DNA of 47,285 nucleotides from Escherichia phage phiKP26: the sequence record KC579452. One strand, written 5' to 3'. The notes under the pieces are model-generated. The model did not search any database. It had not been told where the DNA came from and was given only the letters and a program-made list of their open reading frames with translations. Within the stretch, counting starts at the first letter, position 1; each line of letters starts with the position of its first letter. The position numbers were made by a program, and so were the translations under genes. Below are positions 10,569-46,961 of the stretch, piece after piece.

Positions 10569-10596
10569 TTGTTCCAATTAAAATCTCGTGTATAAT
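10569..10596 (+). promoter_or_regulatory. sigma70-like promoter candidate for the major capsid gene (TTGTTC-N16-TATAAT)
   Basis: Perfect TATAAT at 10591-10596 with a -35-like TTGTTC 16 bp upstream; preceded by an 8-bp-stem hairpin (caatagag...ctctattg). Confidence 0.4.
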
Positions 10597-10634
10597 TGAC
10601 ACGTAAACTCATAAACAAANGGATGCATCTTAAT

Positions 10635-11582
10635 ATGACTATCAAACTTGACGCTTTCGAGCAAGAAAAGATCACTAACCACCTGCGAGCCATGGGCGTT
10701 GATAAGGCTGATGCAGCTGGTATCTGGACCGTGAAGCAGCTCACCGCAAGCCTGAATAAAGCTTACGAAACCGAGTACGACCAGAACTCCGTGGTAAACC
10801 TGTTCCCTGTAAGCAATGAAATTCCTGGCTACGCTAAGTACTTTGAGTATCCGGTATTTGATGGCGTTGGTATTGCTCAGATCGTGGCTGACTACACTGA
10901 TGACCTGCCGCTGGTTGATGCTTTGGCAACTGAACGTCAGGGTAAAGTTTNCCGTTNCGGTAACGCGTTCCTGATTTCCATTGATGAANTTAAAGTTGGT
11001 CAGGCTACCGGTCAGTCTCTGTCTACTCGCAAGCAGTCTCTTGCTTTCGAAGCTCATGACAAGCTGCTTGATAAACTGGTGTGGTCCGGCTCTACTGCTC
11101 ACGGCATCCCGAGTGTGTTCGACTACCCGAACATCAACAACGTTGTTAGCGGTGGTTCATGGTCTCAACCAACTACAGCAGTAAGCGATATTACAAGCCT
11201 GCTGGATATCATTGAGACTTCAACTAATGGTCAGCACCGTGCAACTCACCTGCTTCTGCCTACTACCGCCCGTCGTATTATGCAGAACCTGGTGCCTGGC
11301 ACTTCTGTTAGCTACGGTGAGTTCTTCCGTCAGAACAATAGCGGCGTAACCGTTGAGTTCGTTCAGTACCTGAATGATTACAATGGCACTGGTACCTCTG
11401 CAGCTATCGCTTACGAGAAAGACCCTAACAACATGGCAATCGAGATTCCGGAAGCGACTAACGCACTGCCGGCTCAGCCGCGCGACTTGCACTTCCGTGT
11501 TCCGGTAACTTCTAAAGCAACCGGTTTGATCGTGTTTAGGCCTTTAACTATGGCTGTCATGAAGGGCATTACTTTTGCTTAA
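10635..11582 (+). CDS. major capsid protein
   Basis: ~316 aa (MTIKLDAFEQEK...) with a strong upstream promoter and a terminator immediately downstream; head-module position. The ORF track start at 10596 is probably 5' UTR. Confidence 0.65.
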   Translation: MTIKLDAFEQEKITNHLRAMGVDKADAAGIWTVKQLTASLNKAYETEYDQNSVVNLFPVSNEIPGYAKYFEYPVFDGVGIAQIVADYTDDLPLVDALATERQGKVXRXGNAFLISIDEXKVGQATGQSLSTRKQSLAFEAHDKLLDKLVWSGSTAHGIPSVFDYPNINNVVSGGSWSQPTTAVSDITSLLDIIETSTNGQHRATHLLLPTTARRIMQNLVPGTSVSYGEFFRQNNSGVTVEFVQYLNDYNGTGTSAAIAYEKDPNNMAIEIPEATNALPAQPRDLHFRVPVTSKATGLIVFRPLTMAVMKGITFA

Positions 11583-11603
11583 TAGCACTTTTTGACAATG
11601 ACA

Positions 11604-11629
11604 AGCACCCTTCGGGGTGCTATTTTTTN
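11604..11629 (+). terminator. rho-independent terminator
   Basis: agcaccc-ttcg-gggtgct hairpin followed by a T6 run, directly after the capsid stop. Confidence 0.75.
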
Positions 11630-26010: not shown

Positions 26011-26054
26011 AGGCTTCTGCTGTAGTCTTTAGCAAATCGTGCTATTTTATATAC
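26011..26054 (-). promoter_or_regulatory. palindrome/-10 promoter-like element driving the lipoprotein operon
   Basis: Minus-strand reading: tagcacgatttgcta-N23-tatagt-tactccatcgaaacgaaa, then RBS and ATG at 25960. Confidence 0.45.
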
Positions 26055-26520
26055 GCGTAACCGATGTAACTCGATGTATACAATCTCATCCGCTGAAAAT
26101 TGTATACGCTTTTTACGCGAAGATACGCATTAGTTACATTTATAAATCCTTATATAATAAGGGTTTAGAGTATTATTATTATTATATATATTACTATGTA
26201 TATCTTGTAACTACTCTCTATAGCTATGTTGTTGTGTTTTACTAAAATACTATGTTTGATTTCCTGTTAAGGAGAAAATGCATATATATATAGATAGGGT
26301 GCAAATTTGGTGGATACATTGGTTACAAGGGTTACATTCAGCATTCATGCGGCGTACAGAGCATCAAAGCGTATTTATGTGAGTTTTACAGCTATATACA
26401 AAATAGCACGAATAATCAAAAAAAATGATTCCCGATTAATCACAGGGGAGTAAACAACTNAAGCGGTAATACTTGTGATGNATAAATTGGAACACAATTT
26501 ACAGGAATGAAAACANATCC
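26040..26520. promoter_or_regulatory. AT-rich non-coding switch region A (phased ACGC boxes, (TAT)5 tract, divergent promoters); candidate origin
   Basis: ~480 bp without credible ORFs between divergent operons; ACGC boxes at 26105/26116/26125; tattattattattat at 26171-26185; GGTTACA x2 near 26320; palindrome element at its left edge. Confidence 0.5.
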
Positions 26521-27451: not shown

Positions 27452-28420
27452 ATGAGCTTCAAGGTTTACACTAGCGACGAGTTAACCAACGAAGCCTACC
27501 ACAAGGAGTCAGACCATGTGTCTGGCTCTGGTCTGGCTCACATCTTCTCAACTTGCCCCGCTGCTTATAAGTTTGCAGAGCATGATGATAGCAATAAGGC
27601 TTTAAAGTTCGGTACATTAGCCCACACGGTTATTCTTGAAAACTCTGTATTCGATGCGACTTACTATCGCCAGCCAGCGCAAGAAGAGTTTGATGATCTG
27701 ATTACTAGCAAGACTGCTTTGGCAACTCGGTTGAAGTCGATGGGTATTGCTGGAACATCTGGTAAGGATTATCCAGAATTAATGGAGATTCTGGCGCTGA
27801 GCGGTGAATCACTTAACGTATGGTGGGATATTCAGCGCTCTAACGAGGTTAAAGCGAACGGTCGCGAGATTGTATCAGCTAAAGACTTTGACACAGTACA
27901 TGCGATGCGAGAGGTGCTGTGTGGCATTCCTGCATACAATGCGATAGTGAACAGTAAAACCGCTCAGCGAGAGTTATCAATCTTCGGTGAGATTAACGAG
28001 TGCGGCGTTAAGGTTCGTCTTGACCATGTCGATGTCGTTGATGATGTAGTTTATATCCGTGACTACAAGACGACTAGCGACGCATCTCCATCTGGATTTG
28101 GGAGATTGGCCTTCAAGCATGGTTACTTGCTAAAAATGGCGCTTCAGCATGATTTGTTTGTTCGCGCCTTTAATGAGAAGCGTCGAGTTGTTGTTCAGCT
28201 TCTTTGCCAGGAAANGAAAAGCCCATTCCTTCCAATGTGCTACACGATAACAAAAGAGCACTTAAAGGTTGGTAGATTGCAATACATGAGCGCCCTATCC
28301 ACATACAAGCAATGCAAGAAACTTGATATTTGGCCTGGTTACGGATTTGGCGAAACAGAGATGGAACTGCAAGTTCCTGAGTATGAGATGAAGAAGTACG
28401 AAGATAGCACGAATAGCTAA
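27452..28420 (+). CDS. PD-(D/E)xK family exonuclease (recombination exonuclease)
   Basis: 322 aa; D...VVDDVVYIRDYKTT motif characteristic of PD-(D/E)xK nucleases; immediately upstream of Erf. Confidence 0.6.
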   Translation: MSFKVYTSDELTNEAYHKESDHVSGSGLAHIFSTCPAAYKFAEHDDSNKALKFGTLAHTVILENSVFDATYYRQPAQEEFDDLITSKTALATRLKSMGIAGTSGKDYPELMEILALSGESLNVWWDIQRSNEVKANGREIVSAKDFDTVHAMREVLCGIPAYNAIVNSKTAQRELSIFGEINECGVKVRLDHVDVVDDVVYIRDYKTTSDASPSGFGRLAFKHGYLLKMALQHDLFVRAFNEKRRVVVQLLCQEXKSPFLPMCYTITKEHLKVGRLQYMSALSTYKQCKKLDIWPGYGFGETEMELQVPEYEMKKYEDSTNS

Positions 28421-28447
28421 AACGGTATTAAATTGATGGGGTATAGT
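28405..28447 (+). promoter_or_regulatory. palindrome/-10 promoter-like element (imperfect palindrome) upstream of erf
   Basis: tagcacgaatagcta-N22-tatagt-tacctcatcgacaacaaagagag; overlaps the exonuclease stop codon. Confidence 0.4.
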
Positions 28448-28476
28448 TACCTCATCGACAACAAAGAGAGATAGAA

Positions 28477-33402: not shown

Positions 33403-33876
33403 TTACTCTTTAGCTTTTCGTGCTTCTTCTCTTTCTTTCTTAACCTTTCGCCATGATTTACGCTGCGGCTTGGTTGCTAACTCAGCTTCTGTAACAACTC
33501 GAAGCATCTGACGCTTCTTGCATCGCAGTGTTAGAGGCTTGCCGTTACCGTCGAACTGTAAATCAGGTCGGCAGAATGTAGCCCTGAACCCCTCGCCAGT
33601 TCGCTTATATCGATTATGCGCAAGCTGTGCGCCGCGAGCTGAAATCATTCCCCGCTTACACCATTCTTCTACAGCCTGGCGCGTAACCTTTAGCTGCTTA
33701 GCTAGATTGGCCTTGCTGCCGTAGAAGTCCAATACAATCTCAAGGCGCGCCCTTAATCCCGCTCTCACTTCATCCTTTAGTACATAGTAACCTGATGGAC
33801 GCTTACGCGGCTTCTTGTCTTCTGTGCGAATTGTTCCGTTGTTACCATTAAGAGTACGCTTGTCAATTGAATCCAT
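33403..33876 (-). CDS. Cro/YdaS-like HTH DNA-binding protein with basic N- and C-terminal tails
   Basis: 157 aa; LAKQLKVTRQAVEEWCKRGMI...CRPDL matches the YdaS/Cro-type HTH pattern; divergent from the helicase across an intergenic region holding the palindrome element. Confidence 0.55.
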   Translation of the reverse strand: MDSIDKRTLNGNNGTIRTEDKKPRKRPSGYYVLKDEVRAGLRARLEIVLDFYGSKANLAKQLKVTRQAVEEWCKRGMISARGAQLAHNRYKRTGEGFRATFCRPDLQFDGNGKPLTLRCKKRQMLRVVTEAELATKPQRKSWRKVKKEREEARKAKE

Positions 33877-33889
33877 TTTCTCACCTCAA

Positions 33890-35912: not shown

Positions 35913-36301
35913 TGGTTAAGGTTTTTCACGACAAAACAAGCACGGACAAGGCTAAAGAGGTTGTTCACCAAATAAATTCAATAGCTTGGGTTCGCCACAA
36001 CCATCCAGAGATATTTGCTTTTCACGTGAAGAATGAAGGTCTCAAGTCTATCGGCACAGCAATGAAGGACAAGCAGGAGGGAGTAATTAAGGGTGTATCA
36101 GATATTCTACTGATTGGACCAAATGGCTTTGCCGCAATAGAGCTTAAGCGAGCAATAAAATCAGATAGCAAGGTTTCAAAGGAGCAAAAGGAGTTCCTGG
36201 AAAAGGTATCAGAAACAGGAGGTTACGCAGCAATCTGTTATGGGTTTGAAATGTTTAAGTTGGCAATTACAGATTATCTATCAAATAGCACGAATTGCTA
36301 A
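35912..36301 (+). CDS. VRR-NUC domain nuclease
   Basis: 129 aa; ...SDILLIGPNGFAAIELKR... resembles the PD-(D/E)xK VRR-NUC core; stop codon lies inside the palindrome element. Confidence 0.55.
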   Translation: MVKVFHDKTSTDKAKEVVHQINSIAWVRHNHPEIFAFHVKNEGLKSIGTAMKDKQEGVIKGVSDILLIGPNGFAAIELKRAIKSDSKVSKEQKEFLEKVSETGGYAAICYGFEMFKLAITDYLSNSTNC

Positions 36302-36328
36302 AGAGATTTCGCAAGGATGCGATATAGT
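36286..36328 (+). promoter_or_regulatory. palindrome/-10 promoter-like element (best consensus copy)
   Basis: tagcacgaattgcta-N22-tatagt-tacttcatcgaaacgaagagag, then ATG at 36360. Confidence 0.45.
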
Positions 36329-36359
36329 TACTTCATCGAAACGAAGAGAGAGAAACAAA

Positions 36360-36554
36360 ATGACTACTATCTACACTGAAAAGCTGTACAAGTCACGCAA
36401 AACTGGTTATGAATATGAATTAGCAATCACCCCTGAGGGTTATATTCTTGATGATGGAGACGGTTACTCATTCGAAGTTAGCCCAACATACAAAGATGAT
36501 TTAGAGACTGTTAAAAACGCATTCGGCGAAAAATTTGATGAGGTGTCAGAATAA
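36360..36554 (+). CDS. hypothetical protein
   Basis: 64 aa from the ATG at 36360, directly after a full copy of the promoter/leader element. Confidence 0.45.
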   Translation: MTTIYTEKLYKSRKTGYEYELAITPEGYILDDGDGYSFEVSPTYKDDLETVKNAFGEKFDEVSE

Positions 36555-36772
36555 TGAAATTAACCTTTGATAAGCAATGGGAACTCTTTCAGGCAATGGT
36601 GGCGCAGGAGTTGAGTAAAGCTGGATATAAAAATGATGTTTGGGATTTAGCTTGGTGTCTTGATTATAGTTTCGAAGAGGATTATCTGAACACTGATATC
36701 GAAACATGGCGCGACCGAATGATTGCTGATATCGAAGAAATGAAGAAAGATTGCCCGGAGGATTTTTCATGA
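36554..36772 (+). CDS. hypothetical protein
   Basis: 72-aa ORF overlapping its neighbours by ATGA. Confidence 0.4.
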   Translation: MKLTFDKQWELFQAMVAQELSKAGYKNDVWDLAWCLDYSFEEDYLNTDIETWRDRMIADIEEMKKDCPEDFS

Positions 36773-36969
36773 TTACTGCGACTTGCGTAATGACGAACGG
36801 CTCATTCACCCTGCTCAATGAGTATGAATTCAAACTTGACCCGATTAATGACCAGGTTGAAATAGTTAGCGATGACGGATTTGCATGGAAGTTACATAAT
36901 GAATTTGATGGGTACTACGGGTGTAATGATGCGAAAGGTAAGCATGTAAGTTTTCTTGTTTATGAGTAA
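36769..36969 (+). CDS. hypothetical protein
   Basis: 66 aa from the ATG at 36769; stop followed by a palindrome element. Confidence 0.4.
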   Translation: MITATCVMTNGSFTLLNEYEFKLDPINDQVEIVSDDGFAWKLHNEFDGYYGCNDAKGKHVSFLVYE

Positions 36970-36970
36970 A

Positions 36971-37013
36971 TAGCACTTTTNGTTAAAACTAAANTACAAG
37001 GATGGATTATATT
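36971..37013 (+). promoter_or_regulatory. palindrome/-10 promoter-like element
   Basis: tagcacttttNgtta-N22-tatatt; upstream of the small ORF at 37043. Confidence 0.4.
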
Positions 37014-37165
37014 AATTACATCAGCAAATGAGAGGGTTAAGAGATGAAAATTATAGACAAAGAGATGTTCGAGATTGCGCAGTCTTTCGCAAATGACGCA
37101 GTTAAGACTGGATCTGAATATTGCTGGATTTGCGCTCGAGAAGCTTTAAAAATGGCTTACGGCCT

Positions 37166-37405
37166 ATGATAGTTGAAACCGGACGCGCCGCTGTATGGGC
37201 GCATTGTGGAGAGGCGGGATTGCAGGATGACATCAAGATGATAGGTAAATACTTTGATATTGATGACATATCTGTAGTTTTCAATGGGAAGTTTAGTTAT
37301 ATGAACCAGCGGCCACGCAAGTATGTAAGAGTTCCAGCAACGCCTAGCCTCGCAATGTATCGTGAGGAAGGTAAGAAGATATTTAAGAAAGGTGCGAAGA
37401 AATGA
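37166..37405 (+). CDS. hypothetical protein
   Basis: 79 aa from the ATG at 37166; a 41-aa ORF (37043-37168) precedes it. Confidence 0.35.
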   Translation: MIVETGRAAVWAHCGEAGLQDDIKMIGKYFDIDDISVVFNGKFSYMNQRPRKYVRVPATPSLAMYREEGKKIFKKGAKK

Positions 37406-37659
37406 ATTTACCTGGTCTGGATTTTGATGAGAGTAAGTATCAGGTTGTGTTTTTTGGTGAGAAGCCTTATCGGAAGATTCCTTTCTCTGAGTGGATTCCT
37501 CCGGACTACCTCGATGTACTGGTGCAAATTGAGATTGGTAAGGCTGAGTTGATGTACTACTCACCTGGCTGCAATATGATGATGCCTAGTGAGTATTCTC
37601 CAGCAATTGCTGCGCTTGAAACTGAGTTTCTTGATTACTGGCTAAAAGANGTTAAATAG
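37402..37659 (+). CDS. hypothetical protein
   Basis: 85-aa ORF; ATGA overlap upstream; stop at a palindrome element. Confidence 0.4.
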   Translation: MNLPGLDFDESKYQVVFFGEKPYRKIPFSEWIPPDYLDVLVQIEIGKAELMYYSPGCNMMMPSEYSPAIAALETEFLDYWLKXVK

Positions 37660-37699
37660 CACTTTTNGTTAAAACACATCGCCATGGATGGCGTATAGT
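37657..37699 (+). promoter_or_regulatory. palindrome/-10 promoter-like element
   Basis: tagcacttttNgtta-N22-tatagt-gtgttcatcgaaacgagag; upstream of a 22-aa hydrophobic ORF and the phosphoesterase gene. Confidence 0.4.
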
Positions 37700-37810
37700 G
37701 TGTTCATCGAAACGAGAGACGATTCAGATGAAAACATTACTACCGTTGATGGCTATGCCATTAACCTTTATAATCATGTACTTCATAATCTGCTAACAGG
37801 AAATTAAATA

Positions 37811-38947
37811 ATGTCTATAGCTAAAATCACCAACGAAGAGTTAAAGCAAGAACTGGCTAACGGTATGACTAACAAGGCAATCGCAGAGAAGTACGGTATG
37901 AATATTCGTAACGTAGAGCTGCGTCGCAGCAAGTTGGCTAAGGCTGGGGATGGTCACGGTCGCGATGTGAGTAACCTAATTCCTCAGGGCTACATGGTTA
38001 AAGGTGTATCTAGCCTTGTTGATAATGATGGCAATGTGAAGTTGCAATGGGTTAAGTCCTCTATTGATGCAGAGAAGCTTGAGGAGATGATGAATCAAGC
38101 GCGAGAGGCATTCTCTAGCGAGCTACCAAANGAAAAAGCAGTTAAATCTGAAGGTCTGAATTTTGATGAAGATACTTTAGCTATGTATCCAGTATTTGAC
38201 CTTCACATTGGCGCAATGGCCCACAAGCATGAGTGCGGAGAAAACTACGACACAGCAACGGCAGAGAAAGTAATGAACGATTATTTTGACTACGCCGTAC
38301 AGAAATCTCCAAATTCAAAGAATGCTGTACTAGTGCTAGGAGGTGATCTGCTTCATTATGATTCTTTGGAAGCCAAAACTCCAGCCAGTGGTCACATCCT
38401 GGACAGTGACAGTCGCTACGCCAAGATTGTTTATGTTTGCATTCGAGCGGTTCGCCGCGCAATTCGAAACATGCTTAGCAAACATGAAAACGTAGAGGTT
38501 AAAGTTATATCTGGTAATCATGATGAAAGTGGTATGGTTTGGTTGCGGGCTGCGCTTGCTGCATTTTATGAGGAAGAGCCACGCGTTAGTATTGATGTTA
38601 GTCCCGCGGCAATGATGGTAACTAAGTTTGGTTCTACAATGCTTGGTTTCACTCACGGGCATCAAATGCGTAAAGCTGATACTCGCCTTTCGGTTATGGC
38701 TACTGACTGGCGACGTGACTTTGGTTTAAGTGATTATGTATACACCCACTCAGGCCACTGGCATTCACAGAAGATTACAGAGACAAATCTTGGTATTGAT
38801 GAGGTTCATGGTCAGCTTGGTTCACCAGATGCATATAGTGCGAATGGCGGGTGGCGCTCACAAAGGCAGGCTGCGGTAATCATATATCATAAAGAGTTTG
38901 GTGAGGTTGGTCGTTTTATCTGTCGCCCAGAAATGTTTAATAANTAG
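37811..38947 (+). CDS. calcineurin-like metallophosphoesterase with N-terminal HTH-like domain
   Basis: 378 aa; metallophosphatase motifs in order (DLHIG, GGDLLHYD, GNHDE, GHQ, HSGHWH); N-terminal ~50 aa HTH-like. Confidence 0.65.
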   Translation: MSIAKITNEELKQELANGMTNKAIAEKYGMNIRNVELRRSKLAKAGDGHGRDVSNLIPQGYMVKGVSSLVDNDGNVKLQWVKSSIDAEKLEEMMNQAREAFSSELPXEKAVKSEGLNFDEDTLAMYPVFDLHIGAMAHKHECGENYDTATAEKVMNDYFDYAVQKSPNSKNAVLVLGGDLLHYDSLEAKTPASGHILDSDSRYAKIVYVCIRAVRRAIRNMLSKHENVEVKVISGNHDESGMVWLRAALAAFYEEEPRVSIDVSPAAMMVTKFGSTMLGFTHGHQMRKADTRLSVMATDWRRDFGLSDYVYTHSGHWHSQKITETNLGIDEVHGQLGSPDAYSANGGWRSQRQAAVIIYHKEFGEVGRFICRPEMFNX

Positions 38948-39022
38948 CACAAATAGTCAAGAAACTACCAGAAAAAGCAGATGGTGGCAATTCAAACAAA
39001 TGAAAAAGCTAGATGAATNNGA

Positions 39023-39214
39023 ATGACTTGCGGAAATATTGAGATGAATTGGTTCAAGAAAGAAATCAAATGGAAAGAAATGTTAAGCATAAAGAGGAAG
39101 GTGGGGATGGGGATAACAGGAGTTATTNATTATAGTGAGTGTTTCAACGACGCGGTATTGGCAAGGANGAAAGCTGAATCTGAATACTCATTTCATGAAA
39201 ATCACGGAAANTAG
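39023..39214 (+). CDS. hypothetical protein
   Basis: 63-aa ORF; Ns within. Confidence 0.3.
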   Translation: MTCGNIEMNWFKKEIKWKEMLSIKRKVGMGITGVIXYSECFNDAVLARXKAESEYSFHENHGX

Positions 39215-39254
39215 CACGAATTGCTAAAACACAAATCAAAAGATGGGGTATATT
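39212..39254 (+). promoter_or_regulatory. palindrome/-10 promoter-like element
   Basis: tagcacgaattgcta-N22-tatatt-tactccatcaaa...; upstream of CDS 39288-39473. Confidence 0.4.
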
Positions 39255-39287
39255 TACTCCATCAAANCAAANCGAGAGGATACAAAG

Positions 39288-39473
39288 ATGGCTAAGTTCA
39301 CACAATCAGATGCACAGATTGAAGTTAAAGATGTNGGTTTTGGTAAGACATTTCGGATTGCACAGGCTTACGGAACTAGCGAAGAAGATGTAAAGGTTGA
39401 CACTATTAACCTTACTGCTAAGAATGCACGTGAGATCGCTTATGCAATCCTTGCGGCACTTGGAGAGCGTTAA
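39288..39473 (+). CDS. hypothetical protein
   Basis: 61 aa from the ATG at 39288 after a full promoter/leader element with RBS (gagagga). Confidence 0.45.
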   Translation: MAKFTQSDAQIEVKDXGFGKTFRIAQAYGTSEEDVKVDTINLTAKNAREIAYAILAALGER

Positions 39474-39661
39474 TGTTGCAAACAATTAAAGCTGATATGG
39501 TAAAGGTGGGTGATGAGGTTTTGTTCTCAAATTGCCAACGGCAAAAAGTTAAGGCCACAAGCCTTGAGTATTACCCTAGCTGTACGTTCGTAATGATTAA
39601 GACCATGGGCGGTAACTGCTTCCCAATTAATGTAAACACACTTATTTGCGTAAACCGTTAA
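39473..39661 (+). CDS. hypothetical protein
   Basis: 62-aa ORF overlapping the upstream stop (TAATG). Confidence 0.4.
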   Translation: MLQTIKADMVKVGDEVLFSNCQRQKVKATSLEYYPSCTFVMIKTMGGNCFPINVNTLICVNR

Positions 39662-39873
39662 GAGATTATCAAAATGACTAAATTATTCTGCGTTAGCAAC
39701 AAATCAAAATCACTGCCTTTCACTGTAAACAACCCTTACAGTGGTGAGTACCAGGGGGATGGTAATTACAAGATTTATGGAGATGACATGACTTGGATCT
39801 TCACCCCGATTGATGGAGAATTGGTGGAATTCATTATCGCAGACTAACTTATAAGAAACATCAACTTGAAAAC

Positions 39874-39900
39874 AGGCGGCCTTTAAGGCTGCCTTTTTTN
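39874..39900 (+). terminator. rho-independent terminator
   Basis: ggcggcc-ttta-aggctgcc hairpin followed by a T6 run, before the lysis cassette. Confidence 0.65.
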
Positions 39901-39962
39901 CGTTTATGTCAAAGTTTAATATCTGGTATTATTTAATCAAATCAACTTAAAGAGGCCGCAAC

Positions 39963-40178
39963 ATGAAGCATTTCTATGACGCAGCCGCCTTATCCGGTAG
40001 CGGAGTAGCTATGGGCGGCGGTTTATCTGACAACACAATCATCGGCATTATCGGCTTAGTTATCGCCGTATGCTTTGGNATTTTTGGCGCATGGCTGCGA
40101 TGGCGTGACAGTAAGGCGCTCCATAAAGCACTTGAGGATGGTGACATTCGAGAGGCAATGAGAATCAGGAGTAAATGA
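39963..40178 (+). CDS. holin
   Basis: 71 aa; hydrophobic core IIGIIGLVIAVCF, charged C-terminus; directly upstream of the endolysin with ATGA overlap. Confidence 0.6.
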   Translation: MKHFYDAAALSGSGVAMGGGLSDNTIIGIIGLVIAVCFXIFGAWLRWRDSKALHKALEDGDIREAMRIRSK

Positions 40179-40660
40179 TGAGCTTCAAGANTAAGGTCAT
40201 TGGTTCGGCTGTGGCTGGAGCCATGGCATTAGCTATTCCGTTCCTGAATGAGCATGAAGGAGTTAAGTACAGGCCTTACAGAGATATTGCTGGAGTGTGG
40301 ACTGTTTGCCAGGGAATCACTGGTCCTGATGTTATTCTCGGTAAAAAGTNCACCCAGAGAGAATGCGATGCACTCCTGATGAAGCACCTTTCAATTCATA
40401 GAGCTGCTGTAGATAAAGCGCTGAAGGTTAATGTTCCAGTTAGCACCAGGGCGGCGCTGTACAGTTTTTCATTCAATGTTGGAACCAGTGCAATGCGCAA
40501 TTCAACTGCTATAAGGCGCATAAATCGTGGTGATATCAGGGGAGGATGCGAGGCGTTATCTATGTGGAATAAAATCAGCGTTGGTGGTAAGAAAGTTGTT
40601 AGCAAAGGCCTGGTTAACAGGCGTAACGCGGAGATTAAGCTATGCGTCTCGGAATTGTAG
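40175..40660 (+). CDS. SAR endolysin (T4-lysozyme-type muramidase with N-terminal signal-anchor-release segment)
   Basis: 161 aa; N-terminal Ala/Gly-rich weakly hydrophobic segment then an E...D/C...T catalytic arrangement (NEHEG...VCQGIT). Confidence 0.7.
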   Translation: MMSFKXKVIGSAVAGAMALAIPFLNEHEGVKYRPYRDIAGVWTVCQGITGPDVILGKKXTQRECDALLMKHLSIHRAAVDKALKVNVPVSTRAALYSFSFNVGTSAMRNSTAIRRINRGDIRGGCEALSMWNKISVGGKKVVSKGLVNRRNAEIKLCVSEL

Positions 40661-41046
40661 TTCTGGTAATTGCATCACTGACTGGCTGCTCTGCTATGTC
40701 AGCCATTTCTGATTTCTTACCAGCAAAGGATGGCGTCGAGGCAACGGCGCAGGTTGGCGAGTCAAACCAGAAAACTGGCGTTGGATTATCCAGCCAGACA
40801 GACAAATCTAGCTCAACAGAGAGCGATATGCGCAACTCAACTAACAGAGATGTAGATTCATCAAGCCATAAAAAGACTGCTGCTACGGGTCTCTCAGCTA
40901 ACACAATAACAGCTGAAAAGATTGAAATTCATAGCACTGAAAACTCTGGGGTTGACTCTTTAGTCTGGGGTATTCTGGCTGGATTAGTTTCAGGTTTGCT
41001 AACTTACTTCGCTTTAAGATTCGCAGGAAACAAAAANGGAGCCTAA
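40642..41046 (+). CDS. unimolecular spanin candidate (lipobox plus C-terminal transmembrane segment)
   Basis: 134 aa; lipobox LTGC at residues 13-16; C-terminal TMD LVWGILAGLVSGLLTYFAL; overlaps the endolysin 3' end. Confidence 0.6.
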   Translation: MRLGIVVLVIASLTGCSAMSAISDFLPAKDGVEATAQVGESNQKTGVGLSSQTDKSSSTESDMRNSTNRDVDSSSHKKTAATGLSANTITAEKIEIHSTENSGVDSLVWGILAGLVSGLLTYFALRFAGNKXGA

Positions 41047-41059
41047 TGGCTCCTTTATT

Positions 41060-41395
41060 TTACGCGAACAGTTGGTCGTCTGTCATTTCTTTNATGGTCA
41101 TCATCTCATTGGTGTACTTATCACTCTCACCTCCGAGGCACCTAAAGCTAAAACCGAATGGTCGCTTCGTGCTTCCTTTGCTCCAGTAACTGCCATTAAC
41201 TCCATCGATGTAACCTTCAGTCATGCATCTTGCCAGAAACTCCTTTGACGCAGATGATGCAAAGTAACGCGCATTAACTCCAGCTGCCTTAGCCATTCTT
41301 TCACATTCTTTGTGGCGGTAAATGAATACCGCCAGGTGCTGCCTGTTAAACTTTTCGTAGCTCTCGCAGAACTTGAACACATCAAGGATGAACAT
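41060..41395 (-). CDS. hypothetical protein
   Basis: 111-aa ORF, last gene of the minus-strand operon. Confidence 0.4.
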   Translation of the reverse strand: MFILDVFKFCESYEKFNRQHLAVFIYRHKECERMAKAAGVNARYFASSASKEFLARCMTEGYIDGVNGSYWSKGSTKRPFGFSFRCLGGESDKYTNEMMTXKEMTDDQLFA

Positions 41396-41399
41396 TTAA

Positions 41400-42989
41400 T
41401 TACCCCAGCAGCCGTGGATTGATATATACCTTGTCACCAATCAGGCAGGTATAGTTTTTATCATCAAGCATCGGGAGTAAGTGGTCTTTAATTTTAGCCA
41501 TAACACCAGCCTGTGACTCGAAAGGTCGAACCTTACGCGCAGCTTCATAAAGTGAGCGCAAACCCACAACTCCTTTACTGTTCTTGCCTTGCTTGATAAG
41601 GATATCAATTAACTTGTTCATCTCAGCGTTATCGCCAGCATGACCAGCTGCGTTAGCAGAAGATAAGTAAGTCTTGCTAAGTTCTTCAAACATCAATAAA
41701 GCCTCCTGCATCGTTTCCAGTCCAATCTCCCTGGACTTCTGCGGACTACCGCCATTTGGATTAAACCAGTTACGTATGGTGTGAAGAACGGCAGCAAGGC
41801 GAATAACCTGCTTATCCATTTTACCTAGTGCGCCACGGAGCATTGTGTGTGAATACTTGCCGCCATCCGCAAGGTGTGGCTCCATTTCCTGTCGAGCACG
41901 GTTAAGGTGCTTCATTGCTGAGTTACTAATAGTCAACTTCACATCTTGCTCACTCATAATTTCATGAACAAGACGGAAGTAATCAGCCTTCAACGCTCCG
42001 TCAATCGGCTCATATGTTGACTCGCCATTATCATCGACGAAAACACGCTCACCAAGGAATGACTTTTCACGCACAAGCAAGAAACGTTCGGATACACCAA
42101 TACCGCGAGCACCAGCATTCATGATTGCGACTATTGTTTCATCCTGCGCAATTACAGAAATACACCCCATAGCAATAAAGCTCATGTTGTTCTCTGCGTT
42201 CGCACGCGCGATAGATACGTTACCAGCATCCCAGGCCTTAAGTACCAGTTCGCTGTTTGTTTNCTTTGTTCCATCACCATAGGTCATGCCAAGCAGTGAG
42301 TTGACGCTCGTCGCCTCATCCGAGATGACAGCGAAGCTACCCTGACGATGGTTAATGCGTGCCAGACCTTCAGGAGTAGTATCAGATACAGGGAATACGA
42401 TGTCGCAAAGTTTCTCGAGCTTATCTTCCAGCTCCTCCTTCTCCTCAAACAAACCAGCCATCTCAGAAGGCGACTTCTCCTGCTTCATTTCTTTAGCCAG
42501 AGCCGACAGCTTGGCCATAATCTTTTTACGGTCACGCTTACGCAGATCGTTTAGTCGCTCAGTCTCTGCAATCATTGGAGCCAGAGACAGCGAGTTAATG
42601 GCGGATTTACCAGTTGATGGAGGCTGGCTGGTCACTACATACAGTGATGTTGGTTGTTGAGTTCCGTGATACTCAACCGTAAAGCGACCTAACATAGCTG
42701 CCGAGATGCAACCAAGGAAGTGCATATAAGCAGATGATTCAGGAAACTGAACAGAACGAGCAATGTTGCTTGATAGTTTGCCAACTACATCATAGTCGTT
42801 ACCAAGCGAGATAACAGGATACTTGTCGCCAGTAGAATCAATCTCAACCGGAGCTTTCCAGAATGATGCGCTCTGGCGATAACCGTTCGCATTAATAGCA
42901 ACACGTAAAGGAGGTAATCCATCCTGAGCGGCAACAGCCATTACTTGTTCAACAGTCAATTTGTCATCATTAAAATCAAACATTATCAT
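41400..42989 (-). CDS. P-loop NTPase of unknown function (Walker A-like PPSTGKS, Walker B-like AVISDEA)
   Basis: 529 aa; N- and C-terminal segments are paralogous to the short protein at 46389-46961. Confidence 0.5.
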   Translation of the reverse strand: MIMFDFNDDKLTVEQVMAVAAQDGLPPLRVAINANGYRQSASFWKAPVEIDSTGDKYPVISLGNDYDVVGKLSSNIARSVQFPESSAYMHFLGCISAAMLGRFTVEYHGTQQPTSLYVVTSQPPSTGKSAINSLSLAPMIAETERLNDLRKRDRKKIMAKLSALAKEMKQEKSPSEMAGLFEEKEELEDKLEKLCDIVFPVSDTTPEGLARINHRQGSFAVISDEATSVNSLLGMTYGDGTKXTNSELVLKAWDAGNVSIARANAENNMSFIAMGCISVIAQDETIVAIMNAGARGIGVSERFLLVREKSFLGERVFVDDNGESTYEPIDGALKADYFRLVHEIMSEQDVKLTISNSAMKHLNRARQEMEPHLADGGKYSHTMLRGALGKMDKQVIRLAAVLHTIRNWFNPNGGSPQKSREIGLETMQEALLMFEELSKTYLSSANAAGHAGDNAEMNKLIDILIKQGKNSKGVVGLRSLYEAARKVRPFESQAGVMAKIKDHLLPMLDDKNYTCLIGDKVYINPRLLG

Positions 42990-43241
42990 CTCTCTCTAAA
43001 TGCCCCCGAAGGGGCTTGATTATTTACTTGATACGAACTTCAATCATCTGACCTTTATGAGGAAGATACAGCTTTGCGCGACCTCTAATCATTACGGTGA
43101 TGATATTCTCCTTAAGGTCAACGTGAAGTACTTTGCGGAACAGTGGCCCCATTTTTACCATCATGCCAGGTTTGATGTTTTCGATAGTAGTCATGATATC
43201 CATTTTTTAGCCCTTTTAATGTATTTCGTTTCGATGAAGAG

Positions 43242-43285
43242 AATATATCAATTTTTGTTGTTAAGGTCTTTAGCAAAAAGTGCCA
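43242..43285 (-). promoter_or_regulatory. palindrome/-10 promoter-like element (minus strand)
   Basis: Minus reading: tggcactttttgcta-N23-tatatt-ctcttcatcgaaacgaaa, then a 59-aa ORF starting near 43200. Confidence 0.4.
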
Positions 43286-43439
43286 TTAAAGACCAACCAG
43301 ACATTTGCCAACTACAACAGCGATTGCGCCCATGAAGCCAAAGAANCCAAACTTAATTACTTGTTCCATTACCGCATCAACTGCTTTAGAGATGTTTTTC
43401 ATTTTGTTCACCTTAGTGTTTGTCTTCTTGATGGAAACA

Positions 43440-43483
43440 AATATACCCGCCGAAGCGGGTAGTGTCATTAGCAAAAAGTGCTA
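43440..43483 (-). promoter_or_regulatory. palindrome/-10 promoter-like element with embedded GC hairpin (minus strand)
   Basis: Minus reading: tagcactttttgcta, spacer containing cccgc-ttcg-gcggg, then tatatt; small membrane ORF downstream. Confidence 0.4.
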
Positions 43484-43678
43484 TTAATTAAAACCTTTCG
43501 CCAGATGATAGCTTATTACTAGGCATTTTATCTATGAAAGTTTCAAGCAACCATTTTCTAGTAATGAAATCAACCACGCAAAAATAGCCTCTATCTTTGC
43601 AGTATCTGTACTTAGTGCCGTGTTGTATAGACTTGCAATAAATTGAATCTTTTGTTATGTAAATTCTTACTGTCTCAT

Positions 43679-44032
43679 TCATTTGTATTGGCTCTCGAAT
43701 TTATAAGTTCCGCAAACAGTTGTAAATCCAACATCTTCAGAGCGAATCAGCGTCCATGAGTCACCATCTTCATCAAATATTTTACCAGCGTTCTGTCCAA
43801 GAGATGCGGTCATTTCTACCTGATAGCGACGACCTTGCTTGAATGACTTTGATACTCCTGATTTATGGTTAACAAATGTGACATAAAGAGTCTTAGTCTT
43901 GATGTAACGCCCCCGCTCAGTGAGATTTTGCCATTTACCATGAATCTTGATTTGCTCAATACCATCTTTAACGCGAGCTTTAAACAGATTGTTATCTGAG
44001 CTGATCCAGTTTTTAGTGATAGTGGTAGCCAT
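43679..44032 (-). CDS. hypothetical protein
   Basis: 117-aa ORF in the minus-strand small-gene island. Confidence 0.4.
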   Translation of the reverse strand: MATTITKNWISSDNNLFKARVKDGIEQIKIHGKWQNLTERGRYIKTKTLYVTFVNHKSGVSKSFKQGRRYQVEMTASLGQNAGKIFDEDGDSWTLIRSEDVGFTTVCGTYKFESQYK

Positions 44033-44057
44033 TACTATTTTCCTTTTNGGTTTGTTA

Positions 44058-44360
44058 TTAGTTAGCGTTATGACGTTCGATATAGTCGCGGATTGTTTCG
44101 CCTACGCTTTTAGCGGCACCAAAAGTGCCCTTTGCGTGGCGTGAATCGCGGTACGTCTGGAAGAATTTACGAGCGATGTTTGCGAACATTGAACCAGTCA
44201 CGCGAGCATCACCGAAATTTGTTTCGATAGCGTTGCTAATGCCATCCTTGAACTCATTTTCAGTCATGAACATCTCTGCCATGCCAGCAGTCTCGAAAAG
44301 GTTAGCTAATTCATTCATGTTGTTATGGTCTTCGGCTGTAAACAGGTTCATGTTAATCAT
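44058..44360 (-). CDS. hypothetical protein
   Basis: 100-aa ORF preceded on the minus strand by a full promoter/leader element. Confidence 0.45.
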   Translation of the reverse strand: MINMNLFTAEDHNNMNELANLFETAGMAEMFMTENEFKDGISNAIETNFGDARVTGSMFANIARKFFQTYRDSRHAKGTFGAAKSVGETIRDYIERHNAN

Positions 44361-44394
44361 CTTCGTGATTCTTTAGTTTCGTTTCGATGAGATG

Positions 44395-44437
44395 AATATA
44401 CAATAAAAGCCCCGAAGGGCTTTAGCAATTCGTGCTA
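44395..44437 (-). promoter_or_regulatory. palindrome/-10 promoter-like element with embedded terminator hairpin (minus strand)
   Basis: Minus reading: tagcacgaattgcta, spacer aaagccc-ttcg-gggcttt, then tatatt-catctcatcgaaacgaaa; upstream of CDS 44058-44360. Confidence 0.45.
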
Positions 44438-44587
44438 TTNCTTTGCTGCTTTTGCAATTGCCTTCTGGACGATGTTGAAGCTCTCAATCAAATCTTCTTT
44501 GAAGTAGTCACCAACAGGCCAACCCTTACCGCTGTACTTGGCTATGGTTTCTAGATCGTAATAGTTCAAGTCAGATGGCTTTAGCAT

Positions 44588-44827
44588 TTACTTAACCTCA
44601 TCAAAAGTTGCAATACCAGGAATAAACACTCCAACCTTCCAGCCTGTAATGGCAATCCATCCAGAATCGTGCTTGTGTGGTCGCTCAGCGCCATTAATAA
44701 CCCATTCGTTCGGGATTGCCTTGCCGTTAATGATTAGACGCTCAGCGTCGTATAAAGAGCCTTTTACGAATGGTGTTAGTATTTTCTTGTCGGTACTTGT
44801 AATGCAATTGGTGCAGCGAATTTTCAT
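44588..44827 (-). CDS. hypothetical protein
   Basis: 79-aa ORF; small ORFs flank it (44441-44587 and 44832-45011, the latter Cys-rich). Confidence 0.4.
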   Translation of the reverse strand: MKIRCTNCITSTDKKILTPFVKGSLYDAERLIINGKAIPNEWVINGAERPHKHDSGWIAITGWKVGVFIPGIATFDEVK

Positions 44828-45006
44828 ATCTCAATCCTCAAATAAATGGTAAACATTCGACGCAGCCAAGTCCATCGCAGCACAGAAATTCATCTTCTGA
44901 CTGGAATTGCTTAGCCAAATCAATGTCCAGCTTTCCGCGCAGCACAAGGTTGGTGTAAACTTCGTTAAGTCCAATCAGTGCGCATTCGTGGCGCAACTCG
45001 TCTTTA

Positions 45007-45201
45007 TCAATCTTCATAACGCTCTACCTCGAAGTTGTATACCATTACGTTTCTATCATGCTTGTTCTTTATCACCATTGACTCAAGCTCTTCGTATACA
45101 GCCACTACATTGTAAACACCACCAGGCTCAAGGCCGTAGAATTCGTACTCTTCATCGTCAAAACCATCCGTTTTACTTAGTGCTGTTATTTTNACCTTCA
45201 T
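45007..45201 (-). CDS. hypothetical protein
   Basis: 64 aa; first gene after a full promoter/leader element with RBS (gaggag). Confidence 0.45.
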   Translation of the reverse strand: MKXKITALSKTDGFDDEEYEFYGLEPGGVYNVVAVYEELESMVIKNKHDRNVMVYNFEVERYED

Positions 45202-45228
45202 ATCTATCTCCTCGTTGTTGATGAGTTT

Positions 45229-45272
45229 ACTATAGCCTTGCCATCCCCATTTGTCTTTAGCAAAAAGTGCTA
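45229..45272 (-). promoter_or_regulatory. palindrome/-10 promoter-like element (minus strand), first promoter of the leftward operon from region B
   Basis: Minus reading: tagcactttttgcta-N23-tatagt-aaactcatcaacaacgaggag, then ATG at 45201. Confidence 0.45.
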
Positions 45273-45289
45273 TTCGTCAGATTTATGGA

Positions 45290-45870
45290 TTGTTGCAGGC
45301 ATTGCGATGATTAGCATGACTATTACACATAAAGCAATATTTCATCGATTGCAATGATTTTCTGGACTGTTGCGAATTTATCAATGATTGATGGATTGAT
45401 GGAATGAAGTGAGGGTTGTATCAACTAGTTGGTTGGTTTTAGCTTTCACAAGGAGCTTTCCTTTATGTACGCGTTATGGCTTGTTCAACCGTGTAGAGAA
45501 ATTGCCATATTTACGCCATCCACGCCAGTTTACGCGCTGGTTACAAANTAAATCCCTTATATAACAACCATTTAGATTTATTATTATTATTATTATTATA
45601 TATGTTATTCCGTAACCATGATTATCTGAGATATTGGTGATATTTTTTGATATTGCGCGGCGCATAAAGATTTAGATAAAGAGATAGGGATGCAAGCGGG
45701 GTGGCGAAAATGGCTTAACATACCATAACGGCAATAACAGCCTTGATACGACTAGCGTCAGCATGTAACAATTTAGCATAACGTGCGATTACCGAGTTGA
45801 ACGTGTAAATAACGCTTGCGACATTCACCAATCATGGTAAGATGCTCTCACACCAAACGAGAGGAGTAGT
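45290..45870. promoter_or_regulatory. AT-rich non-coding switch region B, paralogous to 26040-26520 (phased ACGC boxes, (TTA)6 tract); candidate origin
   Basis: ACGC boxes at 45513/45522/45532; ttattattattattattat at 45578-45596 with flanks similar to 26141-26215; tandem gattgatgg x2 near 45390; no credible ORF. Confidence 0.5.
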
Positions 45871-45873
45871 AAA

Positions 45874-46389
45874 ATGAGTAATACAATTCGTGAAGCAAAC
45901 CCGACACTTGGCGACCTGGTGCGGCACCTTGTTAAGATGGCTCTTAATTCAGAGGATGGAAGCGTAACAGTTCCCGTTAAGTTGCTTTACAAGAATCTTT
46001 ACGGAGAAATTGATAACGACTATGTAGCAGCTGACTTTAGACCTGGCGGCAAATATTCACTTCCAAAGCTTAAGGCTTCCTATGTTTCAAATACAGCCAG
46101 CAGAATGCAGGAAGTTAAAGACGCAGATAAGCGCGCAAGGTTCTCTTGTGGAGAGATGGAGTATAATGGTGATGAGCATTATTGCGTAAAAATCACAATG
46201 GTCAACGGTGCTGTTAAGAATGGAACCCGAGCTAAGACAAACAGTCAATTAGAGGAGAAAGCGGTAAGCGAGTTTAAAGCTAGGCTACTTAAGCTTTCCC
46301 CNAGCGTAGCAGGAATGAGTGGAGATGAACTGAAGGGTGCGGTAGCTATGATTAACGCATATCAGGAAATGATTAAGGAGACTAAATAA
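45874..46389 (+). CDS. hypothetical protein
   Basis: 171-aa ORF with a strong RBS (gagaggag); first rightward gene after region B. Confidence 0.5.
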   Translation: MSNTIREANPTLGDLVRHLVKMALNSEDGSVTVPVKLLYKNLYGEIDNDYVAADFRPGGKYSLPKLKASYVSNTASRMQEVKDADKRARFSCGEMEYNGDEHYCVKITMVNGAVKNGTRAKTNSQLEEKAVSEFKARLLKLSXSVAGMSGDELKGAVAMINAYQEMIKETK

Positions 46390-46961
46390 TGTTTGATTTC
46401 AACGAGGATAAGTTAACTGATGACCAGGTGATGGAAGTCGCCAGGCAAGATAACCTGCCGCCACTTCGTGTGGCAATCAGTACTAATGGATACCGCCAAT
46501 CATTCAATTTCTGGCCCAGCGCCGAAGAGATGCTGTGCGTCAAGTTGAGCTACAAATACGGTGTCGTAGTTAGCAGGATTAGCCGCCATGGCTGGAATGG
46601 AGTGGTTGGCATTCGATCTCTATACGAGGCAATNCGAAATGTCCAGCCATTCGTCGGGCGCGAAGGGATTATGCATGACCTGACAATTAACATCATCCCA
46701 GAACTACAAGAGNCGGGAATTGTTNGCCTCATTGGCGATAAGATTTATGTTCATCCGGCCCTGGTTGAGATGGATAAGGACGACGTGCAAAACTGGTGCA
46801 GTCAGTGCCGATCCGACGTGCCACGCTCAAACTACGTGCCACCGCAAACAACAATCCATGGCTATAATGCCGATGAGGTGGAGAAGGCCATACAGTTCTA
46901 CCGGAAAGCGAAAGCTCTCCGAAAGGGGAAATTTAAAAAAAATGAACCATCTATCAATTAA
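46389..46961 (+). CDS. short paralogue of the 529-aa P-loop protein, lacking the ATPase core; 3' end runs into low-quality sequence
   Basis: N-terminus MFDFNEDKLTDDQVMEVARQDNLPPLRVAISTNGYRQS matches the N-terminus of 41400-42989; a later block (VVGIRSLYEA...LIGDKIYVHPAL) matches its C-terminus. In the cleaner repeat copy the ORF ends at 473. Confidence 0.5.
   Translation: MFDFNEDKLTDDQVMEVARQDNLPPLRVAISTNGYRQSFNFWPSAEEMLCVKLSYKYGVVVSRISRHGWNGVVGIRSLYEAXRNVQPFVGREGIMHDLTINIIPELQEXGIVXLIGDKIYVHPALVEMDKDDVQNWCSQCRSDVPRSNYVPPQTTIHGYNADEVEKAIQFYRKAKALRKGKFKKNEPSIN
46542..46922. repeat. Direct repeat copy B (matches 66-446)
   Basis: Same as copy A; after 46922 the sequence degrades instead of continuing as 447 onward. 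Confidence 0.85.

Follow-up and report, generated by a model that had tools for sequence, protein, structure and literature searches.

Promoter-like cassettes with embedded stem-loops between the genes of Escherichia phage phiKP26 and other T1-like phages

The window analyzed here is the whole 47,285-nucleotide (nt) sequence of Escherichia phage phiKP26 (KC579452), and our subject is a short element that recurs between its genes. Each copy has an oriented palindromic box, usually with a -10-like hexamer at a fixed distance past it and a stem-loop in or around that interval. From the sequences, we judge it probable that each element is a regulatory cassette of about 60 to 80 base pairs (bp), extending between the upstream stop codon and the next start codon, in which a promoter is combined with a stem-loop that terminates or attenuates transcription before re-initiation. 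In three cassettes, at 44439(-), 43485(-), and 11581(+), one element of about 60 bp probably ends one transcript and starts the next. What appears to be new here is that a published 21-nt repeat forms the upstream part of such a full promoter/stem-loop cassette in Drexlerviridae.

The box motif and the three composite cassettes

The window represents the permuted genome of a T1-like siphovirus and includes 149 N. Between positions 36000 and 46000, it is 99.3% identical to Escherichia phage C119 (KT825490 / NC_042046; Rogunavirus, Drexlerviridae) and 93 to 96% identical to Rogue1, AHP24, AHS24, AKS96, and JK06. A position-weighted scan found about 15 oriented copies of the box (consensus AATAGCACnnnTTGCTAAA) in the window, which always point along transcription. 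The palindrome TAGCA-N5-TGCTA occurs 14 times (2.2 expected) and AATAGCAC occurs 15 times (1.8 expected). A TAnnnT hexamer (TATAGT, TATATT, TATGAT, TACAAT, or similar) lies 19 to 21 nt past the box in 14 of the 15 elements and 20 to 21 nt past it in 13; many copies have an extended -10, with TGn before the hexamer. The stop codon of the preceding gene usually lies inside the box or just ahead of it. Most copies are followed by TTACTYCATCGAAACGAA, a ribosome-binding site, and a start codon; in the three composite cassettes, the distance from box start to start codon is 73 to 84 nt.

In general, the elements have no canonical -35 at 17 nt, and the box occupies that place. With the hexamer set at -12 to -7, the box was calculated to lie at -51 to -33 and the palindrome to be centered at about -42. 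TTGCTA was considered as a -35 and rejected, being 22 nt from the hexamer and therefore too far. A covarying RNA hairpin in the box was likewise rejected, as the half-site variants TGTTA, TGATA, TGACA, and TGCAA had no compensating change opposite in an informal comparison based on scans that had required the left half-site AGCA.

In a re-annotation of phage TLS, 21 copies of a 21-nt direct repeat (aaATAGCACnnnTTGnTAAAA) were described, oriented along transcription and about 76 nt before start codons (PMC11447400). The repeat also occurs in T1, Rtp, and Rogue1, and its function was left open between a stoperator, an enhancer site, and an UP-like element (PMC11447400). The box of the window matches this repeat in consensus, in orientation, and in its distance of about 76 nt to start codons. 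Past the -10, a leader is conserved as well (TTACTYCATCGAAACGAA; for example, at 36323-36344, 37694-37715, and 44394..44375(-)). With the A of ATCGAAAC as the predicted +1, many transcripts would begin with the same ~12 nt. Such leader conservation is unusual for promoters read by the host polymerase.

The three composite cassettes contain the following features.

44421..44439, minus strand: box AATAGCACGAATTGCTAAA, with palindrome TAGCA-N5-TGCTA at 44437..44423; box score 16/16
44437..44435, minus strand: TAG, apparent stop codon of the upstream 49-codon gene, judged from the C119 annotation offset and the translated open reading frame (ORF)
44406..44423, minus strand: spacer hairpin AAAGCCC-TTCG-GGGCTTT, then TATTGTATATT, resembling an intrinsic terminator for the upstream unit (terminator scan, fold)
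44395..44400, minus strand: putative -10 hexamer TATATT, 20 nt past the box, overlapping the hairpin's T-rich tail
44375..44394, minus strand: conserved leader CATCTCATCGAAACGAAAC, with the predicted start site A at 44388
44360..44058, minus strand: downstream gene of 100 codons, ATG at 44360
43467..43485, minus strand: box AATAGCACTTTTTGCTAAT, score 15/16; stop codon TAA of the upstream ORF at 43490..43488
43444..43461, minus strand: spacer hairpin TACCCGC-TTCG-GCGGGTA, abutting the -10, with tail TATTTGTTTCC, resembling an intrinsic terminator (terminator scan, fold)
43440..43445, minus strand: putative -10 hexamer TATATT, 21 nt past the box, with a -35-like ATGACA 17 nt upstream (promoter scan, 10/12 matches)
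11581..11599, plus strand: degenerate box AATAGCACTTTTTGACAAT (13/16 specified positions), directly past the stop of ORF 10596..11582
11604..11628, plus strand: putative capsid terminator AGCACCC-TTCG-GGGTGCT plus ATTTTTT, with TATTTT (11621..11626) at the -10 position, 21 nt past the box

The cassette at 44439..44395(-) reads AATAGCACGAATTGCTA-AAGCCCTTCGGGGCTTTTATTG-TATATT, with a palindrome-to--10 spacer of 22 nt, and that at 43485..43440(-) reads AATAGCACTTTTTGCTA-ATGACACTACCCGCTTCGGCGGG-TATATT, with a spacer of 23 nt. An earlier reading of the window, made from its sequence only, had described these copies (read from 44437 and 43483) as having a GC-rich, ttcg-loop hairpin for a spacer and a T-run merging into TATATT, and the minus-strand sequence bore this out. 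At 44439, the palindrome and the hairpin share 1 nt (44423), and the 19-nt box shares 3 nt with the hairpin; an A-tract also lies upstream of this hairpin, and its TTTTATTG tail runs into TATATT. At 43485, the palindrome and the hairpin are 7 nt apart, and the last two pairs of the stem take the TA of the -10. The third cassette, 11581(+), reads AATAGCACTTTTTGACAATGACA-AGCACCCTTCGGGGTGCT-ATTTTTT and follows ORF 10596..11582, which by its position matches the major capsid gene. This cassette and that at 43485 are paralogues, with the same layout and 87% identity over 31 nt. RNA folding gave -10.2 kcal/mol (z = -2.25) for the hairpin at 44423..44406, -12.6 kcal/mol (z = -3.0) for that at 43461..43444, and -13.2 kcal/mol (z = -4.0) for the capsid stem at 11604..11621.

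The sequence-only reading had taken half-sites of the palindrome (AGCAC...GTGCT, at 11583) for the stem of the capsid terminator. The stem AGCACCC/TTCG/GGGTGCT does contain them, but they are 8 nt apart and not 5, so they do not form a copy of the box; the true box-like copy starts at 11581, 23 nt upstream of the stem.

All three cassettes fit the pattern of an intrinsic terminator, a GC-rich hairpin with a loop of 3 to 8 nt and then a U-rich tract. Both minus-strand hairpins were flagged independently by the terminator scan, and all three were flagged by a genome-wide census. A lone intergenic hairpin would be unremarkable, since this census found about 16 intergenic terminators in the window. 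What goes beyond chance is that the hairpins fit the fixed 20- to 21-nt spacer, are kept across genera, and recur as a design in T1, Rtp, and TLS. The interleaving of a terminator-like hairpin with a promoter-like element within about 45 bp, as first read from the sequence, was upheld, and the GenBank records of relatives (AHP42 and T1) annotate such sites.

In the reading we favor, the promoter would be read by the host sigma-70 polymerase, through a -10 that is often extended by TGn and with the box in lieu of a normal -35. The stem-loop would be free in sequence and located where variation is tolerated by the promoter. At each of the three composite sites, a GC-rich UUCG-loop stem would fill the 20- to 21-nt spacer and borrow the T-rich -10 region as its U-tract. 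A polymerase coming from the upstream unit would copy the box and spacer into RNA, the hairpin would form, and the RNA would be released within or just past the -10; at intrinsic terminators, RNA 3' ends map 7 to 9 nt past the stem. A fresh polymerase would use the box and the -10 and start about 8 to 15 nt downstream, with the A of ATCGAAAC as its first base. In this way, successive co-directional units would be insulated from each other by the cassette, and the level of expression would be set anew. At 44439, the stop codon at 44437..44435 is only 11 to 14 nt from the 44423 hairpin, and a terminating ribosome might hinder its folding.

Stem-loops across the T1-like family

Together with T1 (AY216660), Rtp (AM156909), and TLS (AY308796), the window gave a four-genome set of 68 elements. 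About 120 further loci came from a pattern scan of viral contigs, which brought the count of distinct elements to 525, 495 of them with a good -10. The earlier description of embedded hairpins as a feature of a subset of elements proved too narrow: 88% of the 495 have some hairpin. The hairpin encloses or overlaps the -10 in 267 (54%) and lies in the spacer in 168 (34%, or about a third), while 60 have a weak hairpin or none. A fold of -8 kcal/mol or better was obtained for 76% of the 525 elements, compared with 25% of random windows. Over the 43 nt from the box end, the 68 elements folded with a mean of -10.2 kcal/mol versus -5.9 kcal/mol for 1,200 random windows (Mann-Whitney, p = 7.5e-11). 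Their mean z against dinucleotide shuffles was -2.58, with z < -2 in 63%.

The stems occupy a few registers. Those of the spacer type start from the box AAA or abut the -10, whereas those that enclose the -10 have their centers either 0.5 nt ahead of the hexamer's first base or 3.5 nt past it. The following stems are of the enclosing type.

28414..28458 (element 28403), plus strand: TTGATGGGGTA-tagt-TACCTCATCGA, -14.4 kcal/mol, z -4.2
Window element 39210: GATGGGGTA-tatt-TACTCCATC, -13.1 kcal/mol, z -6.9
T1 3534: AAGGCCATT-tgatat-AGTGGCCTT
T1 4343: AGGGGAAT-acgctatg-ATTCCCCT
Rtp 37794: GATGGGGTA-tagt-TACCCCATC
TLS 45154: TGTTGCCGTTA-taat-TAGCGGCAACA

Thirty-six spacer hairpins passed a terminator rule that asked for a stem of 5 or more pairs, 3 or more of them G-C, for 5 or more T among the next 8 nt, and for a fold of -7 kcal/mol or better. 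Many different stems are represented among them, such as AAAACCCGC/GCGGGTTTT, AAAAGCCC/GGGCTTTT, AAACCCTC/GAGGGTTT, ACCCGGTC/GATCGGGT, AGCGGGTC/GATCCGCT, and ATAGCGCC/GGCGCTAT. Terminators in the spacer occur at non-orthologous sites (T1 39975, T1 41955, Rtp 2358, and TLS 39623), and the design arises repeatedly and independently. In the T1 record AY216660, the annotated terminator at 41978-42000 sits in the box-to--10 spacer of element 41955.

Between copies, the arms vary in sequence and their complementarity is kept. In 13 elements of one register, which had been picked for having hairpins, 88.8% of cells were paired, compared with 70.6% in shuffles, and none of 500 shuffles reached 88.8%. 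In the same set, 8 of 11 pairs were altered on both sides, and slid controls paired at 39 to 48%. The structural evidence was drawn from paralogous or non-orthologous copies, since the 44439 and 43485 stems are nearly invariant in close relatives and had no compensatory changes there. Weak spacer hairpins with a conserved core CAnGGATG were also observed, at 36290-36303, 37661-37674, and 1590-1607 in the window and at Rtp 4026, 8424, 38477, and 44967. Their outer pairs covary, and their loops (AGGA, TGGA, or CGGA) are outside the classic stable tetraloops; among the 168 spacer hairpins, AGGA is the loop found most often.

The sense strand folded better than the antisense strand in 51 of the 68 elements and worse in 15 (Wilcoxon, p = 7e-6); for strong hairpins only, the counts were 38 and 4. 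The mean sense-antisense difference was -2.05 kcal/mol in the elements versus -0.79 kcal/mol in coding-sense control windows. Hairpin z was -2.84 (n = 55) where a co-directional ORF abuts the box and -1.47 (n = 13) elsewhere (p = 0.008) in a stricter version of a noisy first test, in which a few elements are still misclassified. The helicase promoters of the window, Rtp, and TLS, which head divergent units, have weak hairpins or none; T1 36443 departs from this pattern. Since the sense strand folds better and the stronger hairpins stand at the ends of co-directional ORFs, these results favor a role in read-through RNA over a protein operator or a symmetric DNA structure.

It is unlikely in our view that the inverted repeats act as DNA, either by hairpin or cruciform extrusion that exposes or hides the -10 in a supercoiling-sensitive manner or as recombination or resolvase targets for cassette shuffling. 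The early promoters of phage N4, which are recognized as hairpins, are a loose parallel. A role as DNA would fit the fixed registers in which, for 54% of elements, the -10 is in the loop or next to it, as well as the T1 36443 stem, which has no upstream co-directional gene, and the homology breakpoints at cassette edges. However, the G-U pairs and the significantly better fold of the sense strand point to RNA. In addition, hairpins are weaker at the first promoters of units, stems of 5 to 11 bp extrude poorly, and spacer hairpins exclude the -10.

A different role in RNA, the main rival explanation, is possible, although not probable: the stem-loops may be stability or processing elements, with read-through RNA cut in the A-rich single-stranded leader AUCGAAACGAA and the hairpin left as a protective 3' end. 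On this view, a whole class of hairpins would serve to uncouple messenger RNA segments, and the three with U-tails would be only its strongest members. This explanation is equally consistent with the bias to the sense strand and with the link to upstream ORFs, and the conserved downstream leader would suit it. It would also fit the majority of hairpins (in 267 of 495 elements), which enclose the -10 and are without a U-tract. In the commonest register (L1), the hairpin would be present only in read-through RNA, since its 3' arm ends at the predicted +1. In contrast, the hairpins at 44439, 43485, and 11581 have canonical terminator tails, and no cleavage site is known. Furthermore, a stem-loop from the promoter-early stem-loops (PeSLs) of T4-type phages terminated transcription in a reporter assay (PMC2839356).

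The sequence-only reading had also proposed that any protein on the palindrome would sit on the terminator, with coupled termination and re-initiation or antitermination control as a possible consequence. As a map of the DNA, the first statement holds. During termination it does not, because the terminator would act as RNA once the polymerase is about 25 to 45 bp past the box, and a box protein would sit behind it at the release point. Nothing points to antitermination, and the copy number, the fixed -10 distance, and the variable position of the hairpin argue against it. Control of the embedded terminator by a palindrome-bound protein, whether through antitermination or through hand-over of the polymerase to the next promoter, is therefore very unlikely. 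The contiguity of box and hairpin would be in its favor, as would the gene at 33403..33876(-), beside a box, for a Cro/YdaS-like helix-turn-helix protein that scores under the Pfam cut-off. Polymerase can also slide after termination and re-initiate at nearby promoters. However, only about 7% of elements have terminator-like hairpins while all have the box, so terminator control cannot be the main role of the box. The box is conserved as sequence, with no compensating half-site changes, and nothing suggests an RNA site of the nut kind; no homologue of N, Q, or put elements turned up, although no search was aimed at them. The gene at 33403..33876(-) encodes 157 amino acids and has the position of T1 gp23, for which a C2-like regulator is annotated. 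The gene is divergent from the box element at 33888(+) and 12 nt off it, and its product is a candidate box-binding factor.

Conservation and gene shuffling around the cassettes

The 44439 cassette (box, GCCC-TTCG-GGGC, TGTATATT, and leader) is near-identical in AHP42, Sd1 (Wilsonroadvirus), BEK3 (Braunvirinae), and ESCO41 and TH27 (both Nouzillyvirus), and the 44423 hairpin is identical in these five phages. The 43485 cassette is kept in AHP42, Sd1, ESCO41, and phiEB49, where the loop is TCCG. In the AHP42 record, a terminator is annotated at the 44439 orthologue, and an overlapping promoter and terminator are annotated at the 43485 orthologue.

Both cassettes are conserved across four genera despite differing flanking genes. 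In a comparison with a handful of genomes (Sd1, phiEB49, ESCO41, BEK3, and TH27), the shared islands were 44439..44376 (64 nt) and 43485..43430 (56 nt), and homology stopped exactly at the cassette edges. Upstream of the 44439 cassette, Sd1 has a methyltransferase gene and ESCO41 an unannotated ORF of similar size. Downstream, the gene at 44360..44058 is missing in Sd1, phiEB49, ESCO41, and TH27 and lies behind another cassette in BEK3; a protein search of viral contigs with this gene found two near-identical loci only. Only in the C119/AHP lineage is the second cassette separated from the helicase gene by two additional small-gene modules, of which one has a box of its own (43287).

This conservation bears on whether the composite copies are terminators only, in which TATATT or TATTTT is just the U-tract, the box is a decayed relic, and no promoter fires. 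The 11581 copy, with its degenerate box (13/16), TATTTT hexamer, and no ATCGAAAC leader, would agree with this, as would the capsid terminators of T1, Rtp, and TLS, which are without a box. On the other hand, the box scores 16/16 at 44439 and 15/16 at 43485, the -10 and the leader CATCGAAACGAA are kept across genera in otherwise diverged DNA, and the spacing is exactly the 20 to 21 nt of the family. We consider this explanation extremely unlikely.

Several points weigh against the cassette as a combined terminator and promoter. The literature searched contained no transcript 5' or 3' ends for any T1-like phage. The hairpins that enclose the -10 lead into ATCGAAAC and not into a U-tract, so they are not canonical terminators, and their role may equally be that of the spacer hairpins. 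A terminator nested in a promoter does not keep incoming polymerases from occluding that promoter. The stem at 44423 has no more than four G-C pairs, and this hairpin is dispensable in some lineages, because the stem is mismatched in AHP24 and L003 and disrupted in SU57 and the hairpin is absent in phiEB49. T1 36443, a divergent promoter without a co-directional upstream gene, keeps a 9-bp stem around its -10, and the selection of the 13 covariation elements for their hairpins counts on the same side.

A broader reading would make the stem-loop a required part of a T1-like-specific promoter class. A phage factor would bind the box at about -42, the hairpin (as extruded DNA or read-through RNA) would gate the promoter, and termination would be coupled to the next firing by polymerase hand-over. 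The cassettes would also be portable recombination modules within T1-like phages and even into T4-like phages (KP15). We hold this to be improbable as a whole.

KP15 (GU295964), a 174-kb T4-like Klebsiella phage (Straboviridae, Slopekvirus), has one full T1-type cassette at 10042-10086, read from 10086(-), upstream of KP15_13A. It consists of the box, a GGGGTA..TACCCC hairpin around TATAGT, and the ATCGAAAC leader, and the KP15 record tags TTGTTAAA..TATAGT as "putative middle promoter; discovered using MEME". It is the single copy in the 12-kb locus, and Drexlerviridae phages match just the 60- to 70-nt cassette. By its sequence, the KP15 copy looks like a cassette moved between phage families.

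Other observations concern the rest of the window. A box-less hairpin, GCCCC-TTCG-GGGGC, lies at 43015..43002(-), directly ahead of the ribosome-binding site of ORF 41400..42989 (annotated as DNA helicase in NC_042046), and has a weak tail, ATTTAGAG. Past the exonuclease gene, at 38945, lies a degenerate box, TAGCACAAATAGTCAAG; T1 has a terminator-in-spacer cassette at the same position. The window is about 290 nt shorter than KT825490 somewhere in 36000-46000, where the alignment is in two pieces. The likely site is an HNH endonuclease gene (492 nt in KT825490) within 38945-39230, where the window has only a 63-amino-acid ORF. Positions 1-33 are a perfect inverted copy of 26032-26064, box included, which may be an assembly artifact. 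A 300-nt direct repeat with 95% identity (78-377 and 46554-46853) joins the window ends and represents terminal redundancy of the assembly. A transfer RNA gene, tRNA-Arg (anticodon CCT), lies at 2921-2996(+), as reported for related Rogunavirus genomes; it was the sole match in an Rfam search of the window, which found no family at the cassettes.

Significance and comparison with known systems

T1-like phages are often considered for therapy and are notorious as contaminants in the laboratory. To our knowledge, their transcription program is essentially unmapped, and published annotations give a handful of sigma-70 promoters per genome. Here, a testable map of transcription units is obtained for this genome, with about 15 predicted promoters and about 16 predicted terminators. 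The cassettes account for the overlapping promoter and terminator features in database records, and at 56 to 64 nt they could serve in engineering as compact, ready-made insulator-plus-promoter parts. For a specialist in phage transcription, this should be no great surprise; the repeat of the T1 family gains a concrete, testable architecture. In the literature searched, we found no description of terminator-in-promoter cassettes for T1-like phages, whereas T4-like phages are already known for such cassettes.

The published 21-nt repeat of TLS has the same box, orientation, distance of about 76 nt, and AAA, TTT, and GAA subgroups; that report covers the repeat only, with no mention of a fixed -10, stem-loops, or embedded terminators (PMC11447400). 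Like intrinsic terminators, the composite copies combine a GC-rich stem, closed by a UUCG or GAAA tetraloop, with a tail rich in U. They differ in that the U-tract is interrupted and doubles as the -10 and in that the stems are short, with 4 to 5 G-C pairs.

The promoter part resembles class II activator promoters (CRP/FNR at -41.5; lambda cI at PRM), with a 15-bp palindrome centered at about -42, over the -35 region, and a poor -35. It also recalls the middle promoters of T4, and the T1-type cassette of KP15 is annotated as a putative middle promoter. TTTGCTAAA resembles what we take to be the consensus of the MotA box of these promoters. The MotA box lies 11 to 13 nt from the -10, compared with 20 nt for the T1-like box. 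No homologue of MotA or AsiA is known to us from T1-like phages, and none was searched for. Whereas the binding proteins of class II and MotA-type promoters are named, the T1-like box has a candidate only.

The lambda nut sites, with boxA and the boxB hairpin, likewise have a conserved box followed by a hairpin. The stoperators of mycobacteriophage L5 also stand between genes in many oriented copies, a comparison raised by the TLS authors (PMC11447400). However, the 15 to 20 copies here stand at a fixed -10 distance, and the sequence and position of the hairpin vary. Neither system explains the conservation of the -10 and the leader in T1-like cassettes. In the annotation of this phage, integration functions are absent (PMC4070988), and both TLS and SU57, T1-like as well, have been described as virulent.

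The closest known counterpart is the PeSLs of the T4-type phages RB49, phi1, PST, and nt-1, intergenic cassettes that extend between the upstream stop codon and the downstream start codon and whose stems have G-T pairs (Arbiol et al. 2010, PMC2839356; Comeau et al. 2014, PMC4122927). One PeSL stem-loop cut lacZ expression like the rrnB T1 terminator, and promoter activity was demonstrated (PMC2839356). Recombination between PeSL cassettes explains insertions and deletions (PMC2839356; PMC4122927). The T1-like cassettes share with PeSLs the stop-to-start layout, the G-T pairs, and the proposed terminator or attenuator role. They also share a sigma-70-type promoter, predicted in the T1-like cassettes, with a variable stem-loop, mostly in the stretch separating the -35 from the -10 or over the -10. 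In both, many copies precede small genes of unknown function, and breakpoints of insertions, deletions, or replacements lie at the cassettes, as judged here from a handful of genomes.

The differences are equally clear. The T1-like cassettes belong to another phage family, lie outside any T4-like hyperplastic region, and have no sequence homology to T4-type PeSL motifs. They are without a canonical -35 and an AT-rich upstream region and have instead the 19-nt palindromic box, as well as a conserved transcribed leader. Functional assays and mini-circle evidence belong to the PeSLs, whereas the T1-like cassettes are known from their sequence. By this comparison, the T1-like cassettes appear to be an analogue of PeSLs and not a homologue. 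The idea of portable promoter-terminator cassettes that mediate gene shuffling is thereby carried from T4-like myoviruses to an unrelated siphovirus family, which suggests that such cassettes are a convergent solution in unrelated virulent phages.

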